From: a virus | IMG/VR virus record: IMGVR_UViG_3300032323_002843 | Location: 23,909 to 87,908 of that record | Direction: 5' to 3' (one strand) | Length of the DNA stretch: 64,000 nucleotides | In this document: positions 23,645-57,725 of the stretch, piece after piece | Layout of the letters: the number at the start of each line of letters is the position of its first letter | How positions within the stretch are numbered: the stretch's first letter is position 1 | Made by a program: the position numbers and the translations under genes | The notes under the pieces: model-generated | Databases searched by the model: none | What the model was told of the DNA's origin: nothing | Seen by the model: the letters and a program-made list of their open reading frames with translations, nothing else

Positions 23645-24111
23645 TATAAACCTAATTCTTTAAGTTGCTTAATTGTATTAGCTGCTGATGTGTGTAATAT
23701 TCCTATACCACCCTTATCATTCCATTCTTGGATAGTATTAGGTAAATCATCAATTAGAATTCTATTTTCACCTGAGAATAATTGCTTTTGTGCTCTCGGA
23801 TAGAAATAGGCGTTTTTATAGCTATTTTGTAGGTGCATTTTTAACCAAGCATCTTTACCAACACGAGATGTTTGGCTGCGAGATGGTGATGATAAAATAT
23901 ATGGTTTATACTTTTTAATATAACGCCATAATTCTTGTCCATCAGGCATCCAGGGCAAATTAGCCCAAAATGATGGACCTTCAGCATCTATAGGTTCCCA
24001 AAAAGCATTATCGCCTTTAGCAAATTGTTTTGTATGAACGCCTGTTGCGTCATAATAACCTTTTTCAAAATCGACAAGGACACCGTCCATGTCACAAAAA
24101 ATTTTATACAT
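23644..24111 (-). CDS. HAD-family 5'(3')-deoxyribonucleotidase (NT5C-like)
   Basis: FCDMDGVLVDF, LPWMPDG, ILIDD, W...GGIGILH. Confidence 0.88.
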   Translation of the reverse strand: MYKIFCDMDGVLVDFEKGYYDATGVHTKQFAKGDNAFWEPIDAEGPSFWANLPWMPDGQELWRYIKKYKPYILSSPSRSQTSRVGKDAWLKMHLQNSYKNAYFYPRAQKQLFSGENRILIDDLPNTIQEWNDKGGIGILHTSAANTIKQLKELGL

Positions 24112-26205: not shown

Positions 26206-27408
26206 TTATTGTCCCTTAACTGGGAAACGTGTCCATCCATTTATCCATGTTGGTTTAGATATAGTTTCCATTTCAGCTTTAGTATAGCTTACTTCTTTGT
26301 TACCTTGTGATAATGCTTTTATTTTTATATCAGCAGCGGTAAACACTGTAGATGTAGATCTAAAGTTTAATAATGGGTCGAATGACTGTACTTCATTATT
26401 TTCAAACTTACTAATACCATCTTTATAAGCTTGTGCTGTTTCATTTGATTCAATACTAAATCCACCTTTTTGATATCCTAATATTTTAGAATTAGTCATT
26501 GTAAACTGTGTTGCACGTCTCCATCTTAAACCTAGATTGTGGTTTGCTAATGAAGCAGCATCAAATGGTCCAATCAGTACCATACTATTTAATTTAGGAT
26601 GTGTAAATGGTTGAGCGGTTGAGCCTGTACCATCATTATCACATTCTATACCATTTCCAGCATCACCATTATCTACAAATTGTGGATCACGTTTTGAGAT
26701 ACTGTTTGTTATAGTTCCAGTATAACCAAAATCAAAATCATAATCATCATCTGCAGTAGCAAAAGCATATAAATTTTTAGCATTTACAGTACCACCAAAA
26801 AATTCAAACGCATCATCGTTAGCATAAATAGTTTGAACATTCTCAATAATTGTTCCACTACCAACACCACCTAATGTTAATGCATTGATTTCGGAGTTTG
26901 GCATTGCTGCAATTCCAGCATATTCAATACGAATAAATTTTAAAACACCACTATTATCTAAATCATTAGTACCACCATAAGGACGACCAATACCACCTTC
27001 GATAGTTGGTTCTGATGATCTGTTGGTTTTAGCACGGCCTAAAATTACAATACCACCCCAATCGCCAGGAGACCTCTCGCCGACGTTTTTGCCTGAGGTG
27101 AATATAATTGGTTTTGTAGCTGTACCTTCAGCTATAATTTGAGCCCCTCTTTCAATACACAGGGCACCTTTTTCAGCAATATCACTTATAATAGTGGTAC
27201 CTGGTTGGATGATAAGTTTAGCACCATCAGTTATGTAAACATATCCTTTTAAAGTCCATGTTTTGTCTGATGTTAATGTAATTGTTGTGTTAATGTTACC
27301 GCTTAATGTTGTTGATGTAGGGACATTAATTGGTCCTTCACCTCCACCTAATTCTTTTTTGCAGGAAAATAGTCCAATGATAGCTAATAGTGTTAATAGC
27401 TTTTTCAT
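26206..27408 (-). CDS. Bacteroidota-type surface lipoprotein, beta-helix-like
   Basis: Lipobox LFSC followed by KKE; GDWGGIVILG, IRIEYAG, DDAFEFFGGTVN and NGIECDN motifs. Confidence 0.85.
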   Translation of the reverse strand: MKKLLTLLAIIGLFSCKKELGGGEGPINVPTSTTLSGNINTTITLTSDKTWTLKGYVYITDGAKLIIQPGTTIISDIAEKGALCIERGAQIIAEGTATKPIIFTSGKNVGERSPGDWGGIVILGRAKTNRSSEPTIEGGIGRPYGGTNDLDNSGVLKFIRIEYAGIAAMPNSEINALTLGGVGSGTIIENVQTIYANDDAFEFFGGTVNAKNLYAFATADDDYDFDFGYTGTITNSISKRDPQFVDNGDAGNGIECDNDGTGSTAQPFTHPKLNSMVLIGPFDAASLANHNLGLRWRRATQFTMTNSKILGYQKGGFSIESNETAQAYKDGISKFENNEVQSFDPLLNFRSTSTVFTAADIKIKALSQGNKEVSYTKAEMETISKPTWINGWTRFPVKGQ

Positions 27409-29648
27409 AAGTTTAAGTTTAATGTTAATGAAATTATTTGTTCGTTGTTTGTTTTAATTAAATCACCTTTTGTTTTTTGGTAATAAATGGATGGCTGCGC
27501 AAACACATCACTTATTGCCAGTTTAAGTTCACCTTTATTTATTTTATGTAAGTATACTACATCTAAAACGTTTCTAGAATTTTCAAATATATCAGCATAT
27601 CCTTGGAAACCAACTGCTGATATTCTATCTCCTACTCTATTATAAGTAATGTTTAATGTTTCTTTTTTCTTGTGTAAATTAATACCACCATTAATAACGT
27701 AATTAGATTGACCTTGCATTTGTCTATTTAATCCTTTTACATTTGAATTCATTAAGGATGTATTAGTATAAAAATCAAACCATCCATTTATTTTCTTACG
27801 AATTTCTATTTCAACACCATATAACACAGCAGATTCTGGGTTAGTGTAGGTTAGTAGTAAATTAGATGGTACTGATCCGTCTGCTACTATTTGTTCAATT
27901 GGTTTGATAAAATTTTTACCAAATAAACTTACAGATATATTTTCACCTGCTTTTGGATATAATTCCCATTTTAAATCTAAATTATATATGTCAGATTTTT
28001 CTAGATTAGGATTACCTAACAATTGTGCATTACGTACAAAATCATAATAAGCAAAATTAGCTACTTCTCTAAATTCAGGACGTGCTAATGTTTTACTTAA
28101 TGAAAATCTATACTTTGTTTTTTCTAAATTGTAAGAAAGATTTAATGATGGAAGTGGATCTAAATACTTTCTATTTACATTTACTCTAGTACCACTAAAG
28201 TCAGCTGTTTGTACATTAAATAAATTGTATTCTGTTCTTAATCCAGTATTTAATTTCCATTTACCAAAATCTTTATCATACATTACAAACCCATTAGCTA
28301 AATCAAAATCAGCTGTGTATCTATCTGTATTATTAGTAATTTCATTTAACATATCAACAGCATCGTATCTGAATATTCTTGCTTGAAAGTTTCTTAAGCG
28401 TTTAACGTATCCACTTCCAACTTTAATATCACCAAAATCTTTACTAATGCTTCCATTAAAACTATTTTCATCCATTACACTCCAAAAACGATATGTATCT
28501 CTCCAAGCAACAGCATAAGGTTCATTTATACCTAATGATTTAGTGATTGGATTAACTCTATAGTCAGGTTGATCACGTAACATTAAATTATGTCCTAAAT
28601 TAATATCCCATGTTTTAATTTTAGCATCAAACTGAGTGTTAATAGATGTTTTAATGATATTGTTTGAAGAATTACTTCTAACATTTTGTACATTATCAAA
28701 ATTATCACCATTACGAGTTAAATAAGATTCTTCAACTTGGTTATTAAATAATGTTTTTAAGCTATAACGATTAACTCCTAAATAAGTTATGTTTAATAAT
28801 CCATTTAATGATTTTACATTAGTAAATGATGTGTCCTTATATTTGTAAGCTAATTCAGTTGATGATTGATAATCTTGTCTATCAATATAGTTTAATGAAT
28901 ATGAATTACGAGCTACAGAACTAAATAATACGTTCCAATTATTTTTCTTAACACCAAATGATAAAGCACCATTAGCATTAGGAATAGATATAAATTCTTT
29001 AGCTAATGGAGATGAAATTAACTTAGTATATGCTCTTTTATCTCCGTTTCCACTAATACGAAATTTGTATGTAGAAGGAAAATTAGATGGAAAATCAACA
29101 CGTTTAACCAATTTAAAGTTTTGATTTGTAGATATTAATCCATATCCACTACCTAAACTTAAATTAAGAAATTTACTAGATACTTCTTTAGTTGATACTT
29201 GAATTAACCCACCAGCAAAATCACCTGGTAGATTAGCTGTAGATGATTTATTTACAACTATATTATCTATTAAACTAGAAGGTATAATGTCAAATGAAAA
29301 TGCTCTACGGTCAGGTTCAGTAGAAGGAAGCAATGTTTTGTTTAACATTGCTAAATTGTAGCGATCAGCTAACCCTCTAACTAATACAAATTTATCGTTT
29401 TGTACCGTGACACCACTTACACGCTTTAAAGCATCACTAGCAGTTCTATCAGGTGTTTTTTTAATAAAATCAATTGATACACCGTCAGATACAGCTAGAT
29501 TATTACGAACAATGTTTATAACAGCAGCTTCAGTGGATTTTTTGCCTGTAGAACGAATTGTTACTTCAGACATTGTTTTATTAAATAAAGTATCTTGGGT
29601 AAAACCAAAACCAGGACACAATAGTAATAGGACTAATATGTATTTCAT
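27405..29648 (-). CDS. TonB-dependent outer-membrane receptor
   Basis: Signal peptide; plug motif ALKRVSGVT...VRGLADRYN...LPSTEPDRRAFSFDIIP...PGDFAGG; barrel motifs ARPEFRE, GNPNL, PIEQ, MQGQS. Confidence 0.92.
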   Translation of the reverse strand: MKYILVLLLLCPGFGFTQDTLFNKTMSEVTIRSTGKKSTEAAVINIVRNNLAVSDGVSIDFIKKTPDRTASDALKRVSGVTVQNDKFVLVRGLADRYNLAMLNKTLLPSTEPDRRAFSFDIIPSSLIDNIVVNKSSTANLPGDFAGGLIQVSTKEVSSKFLNLSLGSGYGLISTNQNFKLVKRVDFPSNFPSTYKFRISGNGDKRAYTKLISSPLAKEFISIPNANGALSFGVKKNNWNVLFSSVARNSYSLNYIDRQDYQSSTELAYKYKDTSFTNVKSLNGLLNITYLGVNRYSLKTLFNNQVEESYLTRNGDNFDNVQNVRSNSSNNIIKTSINTQFDAKIKTWDINLGHNLMLRDQPDYRVNPITKSLGINEPYAVAWRDTYRFWSVMDENSFNGSISKDFGDIKVGSGYVKRLRNFQARIFRYDAVDMLNEITNNTDRYTADFDLANGFVMYDKDFGKWKLNTGLRTEYNLFNVQTADFSGTRVNVNRKYLDPLPSLNLSYNLEKTKYRFSLSKTLARPEFREVANFAYYDFVRNAQLLGNPNLEKSDIYNLDLKWELYPKAGENISVSLFGKNFIKPIEQIVADGSVPSNLLLTYTNPESAVLYGVEIEIRKKINGWFDFYTNTSLMNSNVKGLNRQMQGQSNYVINGGINLHKKKETLNITYNRVGDRISAVGFQGYADIFENSRNVLDVVYLHKINKGELKLAISDVFAQPSIYYQKTKGDLIKTNNEQIISLTLNLNL

Positions 29649-52827: not shown

Positions 52828-53117
52828 AAAAAGTTTTGTTAAGAGGTAGTTTTGTGGTTTTATAAAGTGGTTCCAAAAGGGGTTAAATGGAAATTCGCGA
52901 ATAAATATGGGGTATATGCGTATATATGTTCGATGGGTAAAGATTGTGTTTCTGTTGAACATACCCATCTTTTTTTTACATTAACCACGCCCCGTCGATG
53001 GACCGCAATTAGCATGGGAGCACTCCGCCGTCGAAACGCTATCGGATCGCTATCAACCGCGGGCGTCCCGCTATCCCTAAATTTTTTTAGAGATGCGGGC
53101 ATCGGGCATCATGCCCA

Positions 53118-53324
53118 TTAAATTTTAATCCCCACGGTAGCCATCATGCGTTTGTACTCGTCTGGTGATTCGTCGCCGTATCCACCTGAATTATTATCAT
53201 CATCCATTACTTCATCTAGTATCATCTGCGCTTCAGCTTTAGTTACCCAACCATTGCCGTCTACATCAACTATGTTTCCTACATAGTACATGTCATTCAT
53301 GTTCATTAATTCGTTTACATTCAT
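53118..53324 (-). CDS. Small acidic early protein
   Basis: Intact ORF with an A-rich leader. Confidence 0.55.
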   Translation of the reverse strand: MNVNELMNMNDMYYVGNIVDVDGNGWVTKAEAQMILDEVMDDDNNSGGYGDESPDEYKRMMATVGIKI

Positions 53325-53325
53325 A

Positions 53326-53538
53326 CTATTTAATTTTAATAAAGTTATAATTATCTGATTGTCTCATAAGTCTGAGTTGGTAATTAGTGTGTTCAATGTA
53401 TTTATTACCTTCGTTTACATCGTTCACAGCCATCATTCTGTTTTCCCCTAACACATACCATCCATCAGCTCGTTCTTCTAAACGTAATGGACCACTTAAA
53501 TCGAATGTTTCACCGTCTGTAAATGTTAATTTGCTCAT
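53326..53538 (-). CDS. Small early protein
   Basis: Early promoter motif at 53556-53568. Confidence 0.6.
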   Translation of the reverse strand: MSKLTFTDGETFDLSGPLRLEERADGWYVLGENRMMAVNDVNEGNKYIEHTNYQLRLMRQSDNYNFIKIK

Positions 53539-53572
53539 GTTTTATTATTTGTGTACCGTGAAGATATGATTA

Positions 53573-53803
53573 TTATTCAGCCCAACCACTAAATGGATCA
53601 ACATATTGCTTTAGCTCATCAATGTTCATTTTCCATGCTGCGGTTTGTGTTTTCACTATCGCTGTTACCTTATTCATTTTAGTTATGATACCGTATTCAG
53701 TGTTTAGGTACGTGCTCATACCTCGCTCGTTAATTGATCTGTTGAATTGAACGCGATCGCCTACTTGAAATGTTACTACTGGTTGTGTTGTTATTTGTTT
53801 CAT
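53573..53803 (-). CDS. Small SH3/KOW-like early protein (start revised to MKQIT)
   Basis: FQVGDRVQF...GIITKMNKVTAIV; promoter motif at 53816. Confidence 0.6.
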   Translation of the reverse strand: MKQITTQPVVTFQVGDRVQFNRSINERGMSTYLNTEYGIITKMNKVTAIVKTQTAAWKMNIDELKQYVDPFSGWAE

Positions 53804-53835
53804 ATCATTATTATGACGTGAATATATAATCATGG

Positions 53836-54060
53836 CTATGCCATGACACATTTATCTGCTTCTAACTGTTGATACTTAGCTACACATTTAGGACATCCAA
53901 TGTGTTCCATACCTTCTATAGCTACCCAGTTGCTAGATAACATCGGACGTCCACACATTGTTACTGGTTCACCTGATTTAGCGATGTGAGCTGTATTGCT
54001 CCATACATCACCTTTACCTCCAAACATGTAATGTTCATTGTCTAATTGATACTTTTCCAT
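53836..54060 (-). CDS. Small zinc-binding early protein
   Basis: H...CG...CPKC. Confidence 0.6.
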   Translation of the reverse strand: MEKYQLDNEHYMFGGKGDVWSNTAHIAKSGEPVTMCGRPMLSSNWVAIEGMEHIGCPKCVAKYQQLEADKCVMA

Positions 54061-54081
54061 ACGTTTAATTTTTAATTTTTA

Positions 54082-54396
54082 TTATACCGTGAATATACGT
54101 GATTGGCTCTGCCTATACTGTGGTTCAGTGTATAGATCATTGTAGAACTCAATTACCGTTTTCATGTGTGTATCGATGTGTGCAGCGTCTAGCTTGATCT
54201 TATCACTGGACCAGTTCAGTACACACGTATCATGATGGCTGCGGTGCCAAGTGATCGTATCGTCTATACTGGTGTAGTCGACTGGAACGAATAATACGGT
54301 ACCATCACCCTCATTATCGTGTACTTCATATCCCATTGACTCAGCTAGCTCATATGCTGCTTTATTGATCGCGTTTTTAATTTCTTTCTTGTTCAT
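54082..54396 (-). CDS. Early hypothetical protein
   Basis: A-rich leader AAAATTAATAAGTATG. Confidence 0.6.
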   Translation of the reverse strand: MNKKEIKNAINKAAYELAESMGYEVHDNEGDGTVLFVPVDYTSIDDTITWHRSHHDTCVLNWSSDKIKLDAAHIDTHMKTVIEFYNDLYTEPQYRQSQSRIFTV

Positions 54397-54507
54397 ACTT
54401 ATTAATTTTATAGCATTAAGGTAGGTAGCCAGTTCTGACCACCCACATCTATTTAATTTAATATATTAATATTTTCAAACTATTTCATTATAATATATTA
54501 TTTTAAT

Positions 54508-54879
54508 TTAACTATATTTTTCTACTATTTTATTAATTAATTCATCTACATTTATTTCTTTACCTATACTATATAATACTAAATCATTATACACATTTAA
54601 ATTATTATTAAACATTACTTTAATTTCATCATTATAATCTCTATAAACACTATTAATATTATATTTACTTCTAACTTTATTAACTATTTCATTATATATT
54701 TTACTTTTTTCATCTTTCTTTTTATTTAATTCAATTATTTCTTTATTTAATTTTTCTAACTTTTTATAATCCACATCTTTTTCTAATTTACCTTTAATTT
54801 TTTCATACTTAATTTCATTAACTCTTTTACCAATTTCAATACTTAAAACACTCATTTCACTACTACTTAACTTTTTCAT
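54508..54879 (-). CDS. Cytosine-free gene encoding a 123-aa Lys/Glu/Asn-rich helical protein
   Basis: No G on the + strand over 54438-54925; protein lacks Ala, Pro, Thr, His and Gln; canonical leader and promoter. Confidence 0.8.
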   Translation of the reverse strand: MKKLSSSEMSVLSIEIGKRVNEIKYEKIKGKLEKDVDYKKLEKLNKEIIELNKKKDEKSKIYNEIVNKVRSKYNINSVYRDYNDEIKVMFNNNLNVYNDLVLYSIGKEINVDELINKIVEKYS

Positions 54880-55107
54880 ACTTTTTTAATTTTAATTTTT
54901 AATAATTTAATATAATTAAATATAAGTAATTAATTTTGACCTTTAAAATATTTATGTATATTTTTGAATAGTTTTTTTTTAGTGGTAGGGGGGAAGGATG
55001 TGAGCTGGAGGAAGTACATCCCAGAAACGCTAGTAGCTGGACAGCGAGGGAGCCGGGTGAACACCCAGCTCCGTCTAACCATTAAAAATTAAAAGTATGA
55101 ACCGTCT

Positions 55108-55497
55108 TTAAGCCACGGCGGCTAATATTTCTGTCGGCACTAGCACTCCAGTGTAATCCAATCTGGAGCAATCCCACTCGTGCTCGTTGTTATAAACGTA
55201 TATATAATCCACCCCGTAATTCATTCCCACTGCAGCTAGCTCACTGGTGTTTACATCTCTGGGCTCCACCATTCCCCACGGTTCGTTTCTGTCGCGGTGA
55301 TAAGCAGTACAACTGTCTGGTGTTGCGTCCAGTGAACTCAAATCCCCTAGCTCCATCAGTGCAGTTATTAACGCGGGTGTGTTGTAGTCGTGTACTAGTA
55401 ACTCCCCAACGTGTGCTGGATATCCATCCCAGTGGCAATAAATAATCTTAGTGATCCCATTATCCAAATTCATCCCAATCAATGATCTTGTAGCCAT
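55108..55497 (-). CDS. Conserved phage protein (YCHWDGYP motif; start revised to MATRS)
   Basis: TRSLIG...IYCHWDGYP..VG..L...GDLSSL...AYHRDR. Confidence 0.75.
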   Translation of the reverse strand: MATRSLIGMNLDNGITKIIYCHWDGYPAHVGELLVHDYNTPALITALMELGDLSSLDATPDSCTAYHRDRNEPWGMVEPRDVNTSELAAVGMNYGVDYIYVYNNEHEWDCSRLDYTGVLVPTEILAAVA

Positions 55498-55558
55498 AAC
55501 TTTAATTTTAATTTTATAACGTAAATGTATGTACAAAAAATCTGCCCACCAAATTCGT

Positions 55559-55765
55559 CTATAAAAAAACATGTTGGTTGACCCCGTGAAGTGAACTCAC
55601 TCGGTGCTCCCTCATCCAGCTGAACTGGTCTGGTTGAGCGTCTGGAGTGCAGGTGGAGCAAGGGACCTGAACACCGTACTCTAGATTGATTGGTTCCCCA
55701 CTGATGCGTACACCAAAAAAGAACGTTAATAAAAAATTGATAATAATGTCTATATATTGCTTCAT
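55559..55765 (-). CDS. Small membrane-anchored protein (start revised to MKQYI)
   Basis: Hydrophobic N-terminus and CxxC. Confidence 0.45.
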   Translation of the reverse strand: MKQYIDIIINFLLTFFFGVRISGEPINLEYGVQVPCSTCTPDAQPDQFSWMREHRVSSLHGVNQHVFL

Positions 55766-55786
55766 ATTAATTATAATAATGGTGAT

Positions 55787-55834
55787 AAAAAAAATGAACA
55801 GACGGGATCTACTACGGACCCCGTCGTTCAAAAA
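55787..55834. terminator. Hairpin flanked by A-runs (terminator for the minus-strand AT-hook gene)
   Basis: gaac-a-gacggg...cccgtc-gttc stem. Confidence 0.65.
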
Positions 55835-56074
55835 TTATGCGGCAACCGCCTCAGCCTTAGCTGGTCTACCACGCTTGATCGTTTCACCAGCTGCGATCTT
55901 AGCTGCCTTAATGGCTAACTTAGCTTGACGCGCTGATCCCTCACTAGCTGGTCTACCACGCTTCACCTCACCACCAGCTGCAACGCGTGCTGCTCTGGCT
56001 TCTAGACGTGCTTGACGTGCTGATGTACTTACTGTTGGACGACCTCTCTTTGTTGATTTGTTTTCGTTTGACAT
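55835..56074 (-). CDS. AT-hook repeat protein (3 x KRGRP), HMGA-like
   Basis: Three KRGRP motifs with Ala/Arg/Lys spacers; duplicated SARQA unit. Confidence 0.8.
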   Translation of the reverse strand: MSNENKSTKRGRPTVSTSARQARLEARAARVAAGGEVKRGRPASEGSARQAKLAIKAAKIAAGETIKRGRPAKAEAVAA

Positions 56075-56143
56075 AACCTTTTGTTTTATTGTTTTTTAAT
56101 TATTATATTATAAATGTCTGGACAAAACATTGCCCAAAAAAAA

Positions 56144-56350
56144 TTACCTGATTAACGTTTTAGCCATATACTCTCCCCCACATCTTATTCCAGCATGAAA
56201 CATGTGTAATAGATCTATTGTACTATTCATTTCAAATTTGATAAGGTCTTGATTACCATCATCAAGCTTATCAACAACAACTCTATCTGCACCTAATGCT
56301 TCAACGATATAAGGAACTCTATCCTTACTAATAAACAATTCTACATTCAT
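56144..56350 (-). CDS. Small early protein (start revised to MNVEL)
   Basis: TAAAGTTATG leader; promoter motif near 56369. Confidence 0.6.
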   Translation of the reverse strand: MNVELFISKDRVPYIVEALGADRVVVDKLDDGNQDLIKFEMNSTIDLLHMFHAGIRCGGEYMAKTLIR

Positions 56351-56405
56351 AACTTTAATTTTTATTATACATAAATCTACACACAAAACCTCGACCGAAC
56401 AAAAC

Positions 56406-57065
56406 CTATCGACGAGCGCTTTTAGGGCGCCCGCGCTTCCCTCCAGTGCGTACTCTAGTGGCCGCCTTCTGGCTGACCCTCTGGGCGATCACCTCACTAG
56501 TGAGTGACGGACGTCCCCTCTTACCTGCGGGTTTGGGACCCACACTGGACAAAACCTTAGGGGTGGTTGACGCTGGACGTCCACGCTTACCTCCACTGCG
56601 CGTTGAGCGCTCAATTTTAGCTGCGTCTCTGGCTGCCTTAACTGCTGGATCCAGAGCTGGACGTCCCCTGCGGCCACCCTCTACTTTCACCTTCGGTGGC
56701 TTGCTCCCACGCTTCGCAGCACGTTCACGTGCCGCCTGAGCCTTCTCAGCTCGACGCAACATTTTATCCAATGTTTTCTTATGTTTAATAATCGCTGGGT
56801 GTAAACAAACCTGATCCATATCGTAGTTACGTACACCACCTCCCCCGTCACGTACCTCAAAACCACCGTTGGGAAAAAGCTTATGTTCACCTGGCGCCCA
56901 TTGGCGTATCAGATGGAACCATAAATTCTTCTCGTAAAAAAACGGTGCGGGTAAAACCCTATCGCCTGGCTTCATTACCATTAGCTCTGGCTCGATGTCG
57001 GTGTAGCTTAGGTATGTACCTAGTTTCGCACCACCCACTATAAAATCATTTTCTTTAACTTTCAT
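56406..57065 (-). CDS. Protein with four C-terminal AT-hooks
   Basis: RRGRP plus three KRGRP motifs. Confidence 0.75.
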   Translation of the reverse strand: MKVKENDFIVGGAKLGTYLSYTDIEPELMVMKPGDRVLPAPFFYEKNLWFHLIRQWAPGEHKLFPNGGFEVRDGGGGVRNYDMDQVCLHPAIIKHKKTLDKMLRRAEKAQAARERAAKRGSKPPKVKVEGGRRGRPALDPAVKAARDAAKIERSTRSGGKRGRPASTTPKVLSSVGPKPAGKRGRPSLTSEVIAQRVSQKAATRVRTGGKRGRPKSARR

Positions 57066-57076
57066 ATTTCTAATTG

Positions 57077-57325
57077 TATGACGTAAATCTAAGAAAAAAA
57101 CCTGGACAAAACAAAACTTACTTCAAAAAATTTTTAAATTTATCTTTAATATTATTAAAAAACAATATACCAAAAAAAATTACTAAAAACAATGAAAAAT
57201 ACCTCCAGATGATATTAAATGGGAAAATATCCTTAAACATAACGGTACAAAACCCTACTAAGAAAAAAACAATTTCAATAAATAAATTATAATCTGTCAT
57301 ATGACGTAAATCTAAGAAAAAAACC
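57077..57325 (-). repeat. 26-bp direct repeat (57077-57102 and 57300-57325) corresponding to tandem early promoters
   Basis: tatgacgtaaatctaagaaaaaaacc occurs twice; minus strand reads TTTG..n..TAGATTTACGT. Confidence 0.8.
57118..57300 (-). CDS. Small two-TM Phe/Ile-rich protein (start MTDYN)
   Basis: Lies between the two promoter repeats. Confidence 0.4.
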   Translation of the reverse strand: MTDYNLFIEIVFFLVGFCTVMFKDIFPFNIIWRYFSLFLVIFFGILFFNNIKDKFKNFLK

Positions 57326-57725
57326 CCGCCACGGCAAAAAAAAAACAAAAAAACAAAAAAAATTGGTTGAAAGTTACGAAAAAATTTTGACTAAGCCAAA
57401 AAAAATTTTACTACAAAAATTAGTACTACAAAATGTAGTTAATACTAAAAAAAGTAGTTTATTGGTAATCAATAAATAGTTGGTGTTTGTCGATAAAAAA
57501 GATGTGTTTGAGCAGAAAAAAAGTGGAATGGGTCGCATCACCACTCTACCCCCACTCAACCATCGTTCCACATACTATATAACTAAAGACAGTAGTTAGT
57601 AAAAAACTACCGTGTGTAGTTATCCTACGTTATGTAGTTTTCCACCCATTGTAATAAAAAACCTACGTTTGTTAGTACAAAAAAGGCGCATTATCTAGCG
57701 CAAAAATGCGCTAAAAAGCGCACGT

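Follow-up and report, generated by a model that had tools for sequence, protein, structure and literature searches.

Messages from which one base or one word has been removed are known from engineered systems: ACA-less mRNAs survive MazF, and synthetic cassettes without C or without G serve to stall RNA polymerase in vitro (e.g. PMC9303389). In the first kind of message as in the C-less one, removing the base or word makes the transcript immune to an agent that needs it, and this is the likeness to the locus described here. It lies in a window of 64,000 nucleotides (nt), positions 23,909 to 87,908 of the IMG/VR virus record IMGVR_UViG_3300032323_002843, where a small gene on the minus strand (54508-54879) and its flanks form a cassette whose sense strand is free of cytosine over 488 nt. 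Unlike its engineered counterparts, or those that avoid a three-letter word, this cassette is natural and excludes one whole base.

Among natural units, it may be compared with the promoter-early stem-loop (PeSL) cassettes, which occupy the hyperplastic regions of the T4-type phages RB49 and phi1 (Arbiol et al. 2010, PMC2839356). As in PeSLs and morons, a small, non-essential gene is provided with a strong-looking promoter of its own and with a predicted closing stem-loop, and it stands among small early genes, with varied neighbours and with shared flanking motifs that could mediate shuffling. It differs from PeSLs in the type of promoter and in that the whole transcribed unit excludes one base; the accessible part of that report describes no compositional rule for PeSLs. 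The purine bias by which genes avoid Rho likewise presses on the sense strand, disfavours C in comparison with G and acts through nascent RNA (PMC13323073). In the accessible part of that study, however, the bias is graded, at about 54% purine with T disfavoured, whereas in the cassette no C is left, T keeps its usual share and five amino acids have been given up. A further point of comparison is DpdA3-type 7-deazaguanine DNA, known for Flavobacterium phage immuto, the nearest cultured relative, and predicted for both complete uncultured genomes that carry the gene family. Such modification is genome-wide and on DNA, whereas the C-free rule applies to single genes, and the phages CP220 and phiST are modified yet have no C-free gene.

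A gene without cytosine

No G occurs on the + strand from 54438 to 54925, between flanking Gs at 54437 and 54926. Over these 488 nt the + strand has T 252, A 165, C 71 and G 0; the sense (minus) strand has A 252, T 165, G 71 (14.5%) and C 0, with 66% purine. The tract is made up of the open reading frame (ORF) 54508-54879(-), 46 nt before it and 70 nt after it. It had been noticed in an earlier, sequence-only reading of this DNA, and a scan for runs lacking a single base confirms that it stands alone: the second-longest G-free run of the + strand measures 88 nt, whether the window alone or all 87,908 bp of the record are scanned, and no run without A, C or T exceeds 66 nt. The ORF is the sole one of the record with 0% C, the mean of minus-strand ORFs of at least 100 amino acids being 14.9% (standard deviation 3.0%, n=77). 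Its codons bear out that the product has no Ala, Pro, Thr, His or Gln and that every Ser is AGT (10/10).

Chance is excluded as the origin of the tract by two measures of its improbability: (i) the probability of finding no C, given the amino acids encoded and the codons that long genes of this genome prefer (log10 P = -13.5), and (ii) the probability of finding no A, P, T, H or Q in 122 residues, given a reference frequency of 23.8% over 23,319 codons (log10 P = -14.4). A literature search, with subscription journals and supplements outside its reach, found no description of natural C-free genes, in phages or elsewhere; genes that give up one base and five amino acids are apparently new, in the sense that the searchable papers do not describe them.

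The features of the cassette and of its borders are the following.

54917-54947, minus strand: promoter-like region, TTTAAA (54947-54942) and TATATT (54924-54919) with a 17-nt spacer, from a consensus scan alone (9/12 matches)
54935-54917, minus strand: box AATTAATTACTTATATTTA around TATATT, inside the promoter-like region, with one exact match in 64 kb
54926, minus strand: last sense-strand C ahead of the tract, within the promoter spacer and immediately preceding TTATATTTAA by one base (read from the sequence)
54880-54918, minus strand: leader up to the start codon, A/T-only apart from one G (read from the sequence)
54438-54925, minus strand: C-free tract of the sense strand, template without G (base-run scan of window and whole record)
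54508-54879, minus strand: gene for a 123-residue protein built from 13 kinds of amino acid (ORF and codons)
54453-54506, minus strand: hairpin of A-U pairs only, with an invariant 22-nt loop, after the stop codon (fold, inverted repeat I8)
54421-54446, minus strand: closing 11-bp hairpin of G-C and G-U pairs, with a G-rich 5' arm and Cs in the 3' arm (predicted fold)

Two small ORFs nearby, 57118-57348(-) and 56144-56386(-), have little C (6.9% and 7.8%), and the G-free runs of the + strand that rank second and third in length (88 and 78 nt) fall within them. C nevertheless persists at their synonymous sites (7/45 and 4/34, respectively).

Conservation of the rule and selection at the nucleotide level

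A search of 5.8 billion proteins returned 360 relatives at E <= 0.1. Among the best 120 of these 360 (72-100% identity), 119 are without A, P, T, H and Q, and the remaining one has a single Gln. The gene was also found in eight related loci from other samples, taken from IMG/VR and from Joint Genome Institute (JGI) metagenomes (69-89% protein identity), and it is covered by a C-free tract in 8/8 of them; the tracts measure 303-833 nt, the shorter ones ending at contig ends, and G makes up 11-15% of them. The sequence-only reading had named normal C levels in homologues as a ground for doubt; such levels occur in distant members of the family, and the close ones keep the rule. It had also raised an artefact of sequencing or assembly, which is excluded by independent contigs and runs, among them a lake-water DNA run from another study (X2) that covers the cassette.

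We aligned the eight coding sequences (7 distinct, 82-93% nucleotide identity). In this alignment 115 of 369 columns vary, and the variants are exclusively A, G and T. Codons ending in a pyrimidine (NNY) have T 348 times and C never; Ile is encoded by ATT 40 times, by ATA 38 times and by ATC 0 times; the third base of Val and Gly codons is T in 67 cases, A in 49, G in 5 and C in 0. As T takes 55% of these third positions in the cassette genes vs 54% in reference genes, and as no long run lacks any other base, the pressure bears on C specifically and spares U. Outside the coding sequences, the tracts (7 loci, 1,598 nt) hold G 89 and C 3, at sites that are not independent, as the loci share conserved elements; the intergenic DNA of the genome has 15.2% G and 15.4% C. 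Purifying selection acts on the nucleotide sequence of the transcribed unit, at the synonymous as well as at the amino acid level.

In three metatranscriptomes (runs X15, X16 and X18), RNA contigs extend over the genes on either side, with depth zero at 54521-54871; being a comparison of contigs over a swappable cassette of very low complexity in differing strains, this is evidence neither that the gene is silent nor that it is expressed.

Searching 1.84 billion representatives with a profile gave 45 relatives, 16 of which lack all five amino acids; the others have up to 26 such residues, apart from an apparent fusion with 42. Trp, Gly, Arg, Met and Val abound in two distant, C-free members (P0144 and P0151). 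Their genes use much G yet no C, which rules out AT-richness, in agreement with the near-normal level of G in the tract; the sequence-only reading had argued likewise from the free use of G. A tree was built from 43 full-length members, 8 fragments or fusions having been dropped. Among the 43, 12 carry more than 12 A/P/T/H/Q residues, and mapping the C-free state onto the tree takes 9 changes, of which well-supported branches force at least 4. It was thus gained or lost at least four times in the family, and the scatter of C-free members is a conservative picture, since shared composition would tend to group them wrongly. As distant members have a normal composition, the rule is lineage-specific and belongs to the unit, rather than being a property of the protein. 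No IMG/VR loci were found for two homologues of normal composition, P0155 and P0163.

Less extreme cases are also informative. The family member of an uncultured phage genome, G005, has about 10 Cs, nearly all in Thr, Gln, His and Ala codons; its synonymous sites have T 59 and C 1, vs 12.7% C expected, and its neighbours are near normal. A smooth gradient of C across the C-poor neighbours in G005 was considered and dropped, the family member alone being purged at synonymous sites. Gene 128 of immuto, which belongs to a different family, has 5 C in 357 nt, and its NNY codons have T 56 and C 0, vs 29% C expected.

Limits of the tract at the predicted promoter and 3' hairpins

Judged by its sequence, a promoter of its own stands directly upstream of the small ORF. 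The A/T-only region upstream of the gene carries at least one copy of the box AATTAATT..TTATATTTAA, which we take to resemble the Bacteroidota -7 element TAnnTTTG with its last G replaced by A. The same box precedes the gene in related loci, and it recurs ahead of each C-free gene in L004, L008, L009 and L015; with up to 3 mismatches allowed, the box AATTAATTACTTATATTTA is not enriched over shuffled sequence. The last C sits one base before TTATATTTAA both in the window and in L003, and the earlier observation that the last C (54926) lies just upstream of a promoter box is correct. The same border is found in the L015 array of C-free genes, whose only three Cs are each in a repeated promoter motif (ATAATT-C-TTTATTATATTTAA), 54-58 nt before the start codon. 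As all three sit there, C is allowed, even conserved, in the putatively untranscribed promoter spacer, and it is absent downstream.

At the other end, the first sense-strand C after the tract (54437) is the tenth base of the 5' arm of the closing hairpin. C is thus tolerated just upstream of the box and reappears only in a terminator-type hairpin, which ties the C-free tract to the predicted transcript, as the sequence-only reading had proposed. The closing hairpin has 11 predicted bp but no T-run behind it, and a terminator scan called none; similar hairpins with a G-arm and a C-arm were read by eye at the tract ends of L002 and L007. The 108-nt trailer as a whole folds with z = -3.18. Over 9 loci the A-U hairpin keeps 9/11 pairs in all, one pair is changed on both sides in 4/9, and the loop is invariant. 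The loop word is found exactly in 10 IMG/VR contigs and is better conserved than the protein.

A further element, at 55081-55102, lies just past the stop of the upstream gene. It could pair with the region around the start of the C-free gene, leader included (54887-54903; 17 nt, 94% complementary), and with the corresponding region of the next gene (54391-54410; 20 nt, 85%). In a read-through RNA it could mask both start regions, a kind of masking that can be likened to T4 early/late control.

A swappable cassette

The genes upstream and downstream of the cassette differ among the window and L002-L009. In L004, L008 and L009 the gene is followed by a second C-free gene with the same box (L004 4466-4633), encoding an acidic protein of 55 amino acids; this second gene also follows the 3' element in L017 and L021, where the upstream stretch is cut by the end of the locus. 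L015 contains four consecutive C-free genes in 1,574 nt (reverse complement 531-2104), each with its own promoter motif, three of them from families unrelated to the gene of the window. Searches of Pfam and PHROGs with these three other C-free proteins and with immuto gene 128 gave one weak match to a domain of unknown function (DUF) only. Both the promoter box and the 3' element recur with other C-free genes that are unrelated to this one. The cassette thus has the appearance of a self-contained, swappable, accessory unit.

One lake-water DNA contig (X2) joins 54397 to 55076 and skips the whole cassette (54398-55075); its shorter side is 22 nt, which makes the junction weak. In a second uncultured genome, G001 (the record of L020), the contig stops within a C-free cassette (167001-167479), which is thereby truncated; this may reflect an assembly break in a variable, low-complexity region, or nearness to the genome end.

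The phage, its probable host and the protein

The record (here G000) is a linear IMG/VR virus contig of 87,908 bp, 52% complete according to CheckV, whose long genes are all on the minus strand. It has a T4-type portal and terminase, and the nearest cultured relative of its portal is that of immuto (59% identity). The phage also carries a TonB-dependent receptor (27405-29648(-); Plug and beta-barrel) that is 69% identical, over residues 23-747, to receptors of several Aquirufa species and metagenome-assembled genomes; it looks like a recently captured host gene. Because of this receptor, Aquirufa, a genus of freshwater Bacteroidota, is the probable host. The stretch is found in part in 20 public runs of 15 studies, mainly from lake water, and the window DNA 53000-57000 had no match in the 'phages' collection.

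The AlphaFold2 model of the 123-residue protein, made with 42 sequences, is confident, with a predicted local distance difference test (pLDDT) of 94.6 and a predicted template modelling score (pTM) of 0.63. It consists of a long helix (residues 6-73, with a kink at 35) and a small C-terminal domain of two strands and two helices. No Pfam family was matched by the protein (0 families), and PHROGs gave one weak match, to a family of unknown function (E 0.0084); ten distant members of the family likewise gave weak matches only. Foldseek found no match to the model in the PDB and BFVD at E <= 0.001, and VIA-align returned generic coiled coils only (Z <= 5.0). In the 'phages' collection there was no match to the protein, where the low-complexity filter may hide one, nor to two distant homologues of normal composition, and a protein atlas gave no usable match to P0155. 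One might guess that the protein serves in host take-over or in counter-defence.

Proposed protection of the message by the absence of C

Taken together, these facts call for a strong cost specific to C, which overrides the choice of amino acids and which is present in some phage lineages only. From them we infer that the gene is early, that every C in the message costs separately, and what kind of agent imposes the cost. The cassette (own promoter, 123-codon gene, A-U hairpin and closing G-C hairpin) would be an early-gene unit of an uncultured phage with a T4-type portal that infects freshwater Bacteroidota, probably Aquirufa. Purifying selection would strip every C from the sense strand, giving a message without C and a copied strand without G, and from this message the protein could still be made if, as infection begins, some C-reading step were blocked or came under attack. 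The agent would act on C in single-stranded RNA, and could be either an abortive-infection or CRISPR-type endoribonuclease of the host, or a shut-off RNase of the phage itself. We tentatively favour this protection ("C-proofing") of an accessory early message against an agent acting on C in single-stranded RNA, and put its probability at roughly one in three; about a fifth goes to a cause outside all the readings considered here.

Several points weigh against it. No agent that acts on C can be named, and neither phage nor host was searched for such an RNase. The start and end of the transcript are predicted from sequence, its expression is presumed, and in the predicted fold a C is present in the loop of the 3'-end hairpin. 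An A-rich message would be an easy target of A- or U-specific RNases. From sequence alone, a rule on C in the RNA looks the same as one on template G or on C of the non-template strand. No match of fold or family to the protein came from Pfam, PHROGs, Foldseek or VIA-align, which leaves its counter-defence role a guess. Finally, the Cellulophaga phages phiST, phi14:2 and phi38:1, whose hosts are Bacteroidota, have no such gene, so that a Bacteroidota host, or a general factor of such hosts, is not sufficient. A non-specific nuclease (PF01223) was also tried as a shared cause; it is present in G005 and immuto and not in G001 or G000, and was dropped.

Alternative causes of the C-free rule

The sequence-only reading had offered four explanations, one of which joined escape from C-specific RNases, as favoured here, to escape from modification of G in the template; both parts are viable. 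If all G of the phage is 7-deazaguanine, the G-free strand is the sole template without modified bases, and it would stay readable if modified bases slow the polymerase or are attacked by the host (e.g. excised). Cui et al. 2023 (PMC10516641) report complete modification by DpdA3 for immuto, phiST and CP220; in immuto all G is converted to fdPreQ1, via DpdA3, after replication. Immuto has FolE, QueD, QueE, QueC, QueF and DpdA, together with the nearly C-free early gene 128, and both (near-)complete uncultured genomes with a family member, G001 (99% complete) and G005 (100% complete), have QueC and a homologue of immuto DpdA3 (33% and 37% identity, respectively), to which G001 adds FolE and QueD. 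The immuto protein was used as query here, as PF01702 (TGT, tRNA-guanine transglycosylase) misses the annotated DpdA3 of immuto. A modified template would account both for the strand asymmetry and for the cost per site. Complete replacement by 7-deazaguanine is nevertheless not sufficient, because genes free or nearly free of C, like base-free runs above 111 nt, are absent both from CP220 (lowest gene 6.4% C), which carries a homologue 44% identical to immuto DpdA3, and from phiST (lowest gene 7.7% C); these two controls weaken this part of the proposal. The immuto query misses the DpdA3 of phiST, and absence of DpdA from phi14:2 and phi38:1 is therefore not shown; calling DpdA3 absent takes a purpose-built profile. 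Moreover, templates of the remaining genes in the phages that carry such cassettes contain G, even next to the early gene; the Watson-Crick face is unchanged in 7-deazaguanines, and a literature search found no report that they block RNA polymerase, within the accessible text of sources such as Hutinet 2019 (PMC6884629). The association with DpdA3 comes from three related phages, and DpdA, QueC and preQ0-pathway genes were not found in G000, a record only 52% complete. We consider the modified template an unlikely cause. Avoidance of Rho, which loads on C-rich, G-poor naked RNA, would profit a message transcribed immediately early, while the host is not yet under phage control. In the accessible part of Dierksheide et al. 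2026 (PMC13323073), an excess of sense-strand C over G drives Rho termination, purine-rich strands avoid it, and phages are named; our tract, with its 66% purine, has C below G throughout (C 0, G 71) over 488 nt, well beyond the 150 nt above which the published pressure applies. That pressure is graded, however, and as described there it gives no reason to drop the last Cs and five amino acids. Thymine, which the Rho bias also disfavours, is not avoided here (the 55% vs 54% given above), the genes of Aquirufa, with 20.8% C and only 52.5% purine, are not C-poor, and C after a pyrimidine is but weakly depleted in the C-poor genes of G005 (ratio 0.80 vs 0.95 in normal genes). Rho seems to us an improbable cause.

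The other explanations are less probable still. A message without C has no G-C pair, and could be selected for free access in translation: Bacteroidota initiate translation without a Shine-Dalgarno sequence and need open mRNA, and here the leader is A/T-only apart from one G and the only hairpin within the C-free part consists of A-U pairs. An unstructured mRNA is a true consequence of the rule, as the sequence-only reading had it, but it cannot explain the loss of the last few Cs and of five amino acids. The start region is already without C and almost without G, so that distant Cs cannot pair there; the effect of each C on structure would be small and graded, and removing G would do equally well, yet G is kept at 11-15% of the tracts. 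This cause is quite improbable. The message might also be completed without usable cytidine triphosphate (CTP), under depletion of CTP or in the presence of the viperin product 3'-deoxy-3',4'-didehydro-CTP (ddhCTP). Elongation would then halt or terminate at any single C, in line with a rule that admits no exception and leaves U neutral, and Cs do reappear only past the reading frame, in the last hairpin. We know of no defence that depletes CTP, and prokaryotic viperins act on phage-encoded polymerases; the 50 kb of immuto annotation covered here show no RNA polymerase besides a small 'RNA polymerase subunit N' (no search was made in the present records). The viperin model TIGR04278 gave only weak matches, at the level of radical-SAM proteins (26-30 bits), in 5/5 Aquirufa genomes; at E <= 1e-20 there was no viperin in 151 genomes of the family of the probable host (0/151) and one in 401 genomes of the phylum (172.7 bits). 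The 14 control genomes were without viperin, this single match being the sole check of sensitivity. With 1/401 phylum genomes, viperin is too rare for so widespread a trait, unless another CTP stress exists, and transcription without CTP, as first proposed, becomes very improbable. Least probable of all are mutation bias, avoidance of restriction sites on the DNA and sequencing artefact. Transcription-linked deamination of C on the non-template strand exists, but mostly A rather than T has taken the place of C, the borders are sharp, the neighbouring genes are normal, and the bias required would, by a rough estimate, exceed a thousand-fold; artefact is excluded by the independent contigs and runs. 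A C-free strand cannot hold a palindromic site with G or C, as the sequence-only reading had pointed out, but this idea is not supported, in that restriction avoidance needs no strand asymmetry, C is kept in promoter spacers, and only about 0.5 kb is affected, with the rest of the genome unprotected.

As a separate observation, the 7-deazaguanine cluster of G001 (within L029, 60001-80000) has FolE, QueC, DpdA-like and QueD genes interspersed with one gene for a GIY-YIG/NUMOD endonuclease and one dCTP-deaminase-like gene.

Implications

In a broader form that spans C in the RNA and fully modified G in the template, we hold it to be an even bet that a lineage of Bacteroidota phages keeps swappable accessory early genes as three-letter (A/G/U) messages. 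By such a base-exclusion immunity, they would be stripped of the base through which an agent of the host or of the phage acts, and would stay expressible when other messages are stopped. If this is true, the agent and the proteins thus protected would be new players in the conflict between phage and host. A rule that selection maintains across hundreds of diverged copies, and that was gained or lost several times, points to a strong, base-specific pressure in infected Bacteroidota cells, for which a nuclease, a step of termination or elongation, or an attack on modified DNA are candidates. C-free genes may mark small proteins without a known fold that the phage must always make, which would be good candidates for take-over or counter-defence functions, and Flavobacterium phage immuto, with its gene 128, offers a cultured system for direct tests. 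Three-letter genes may also be of relevance to synthetic biology and to ideas on reduced alphabets.

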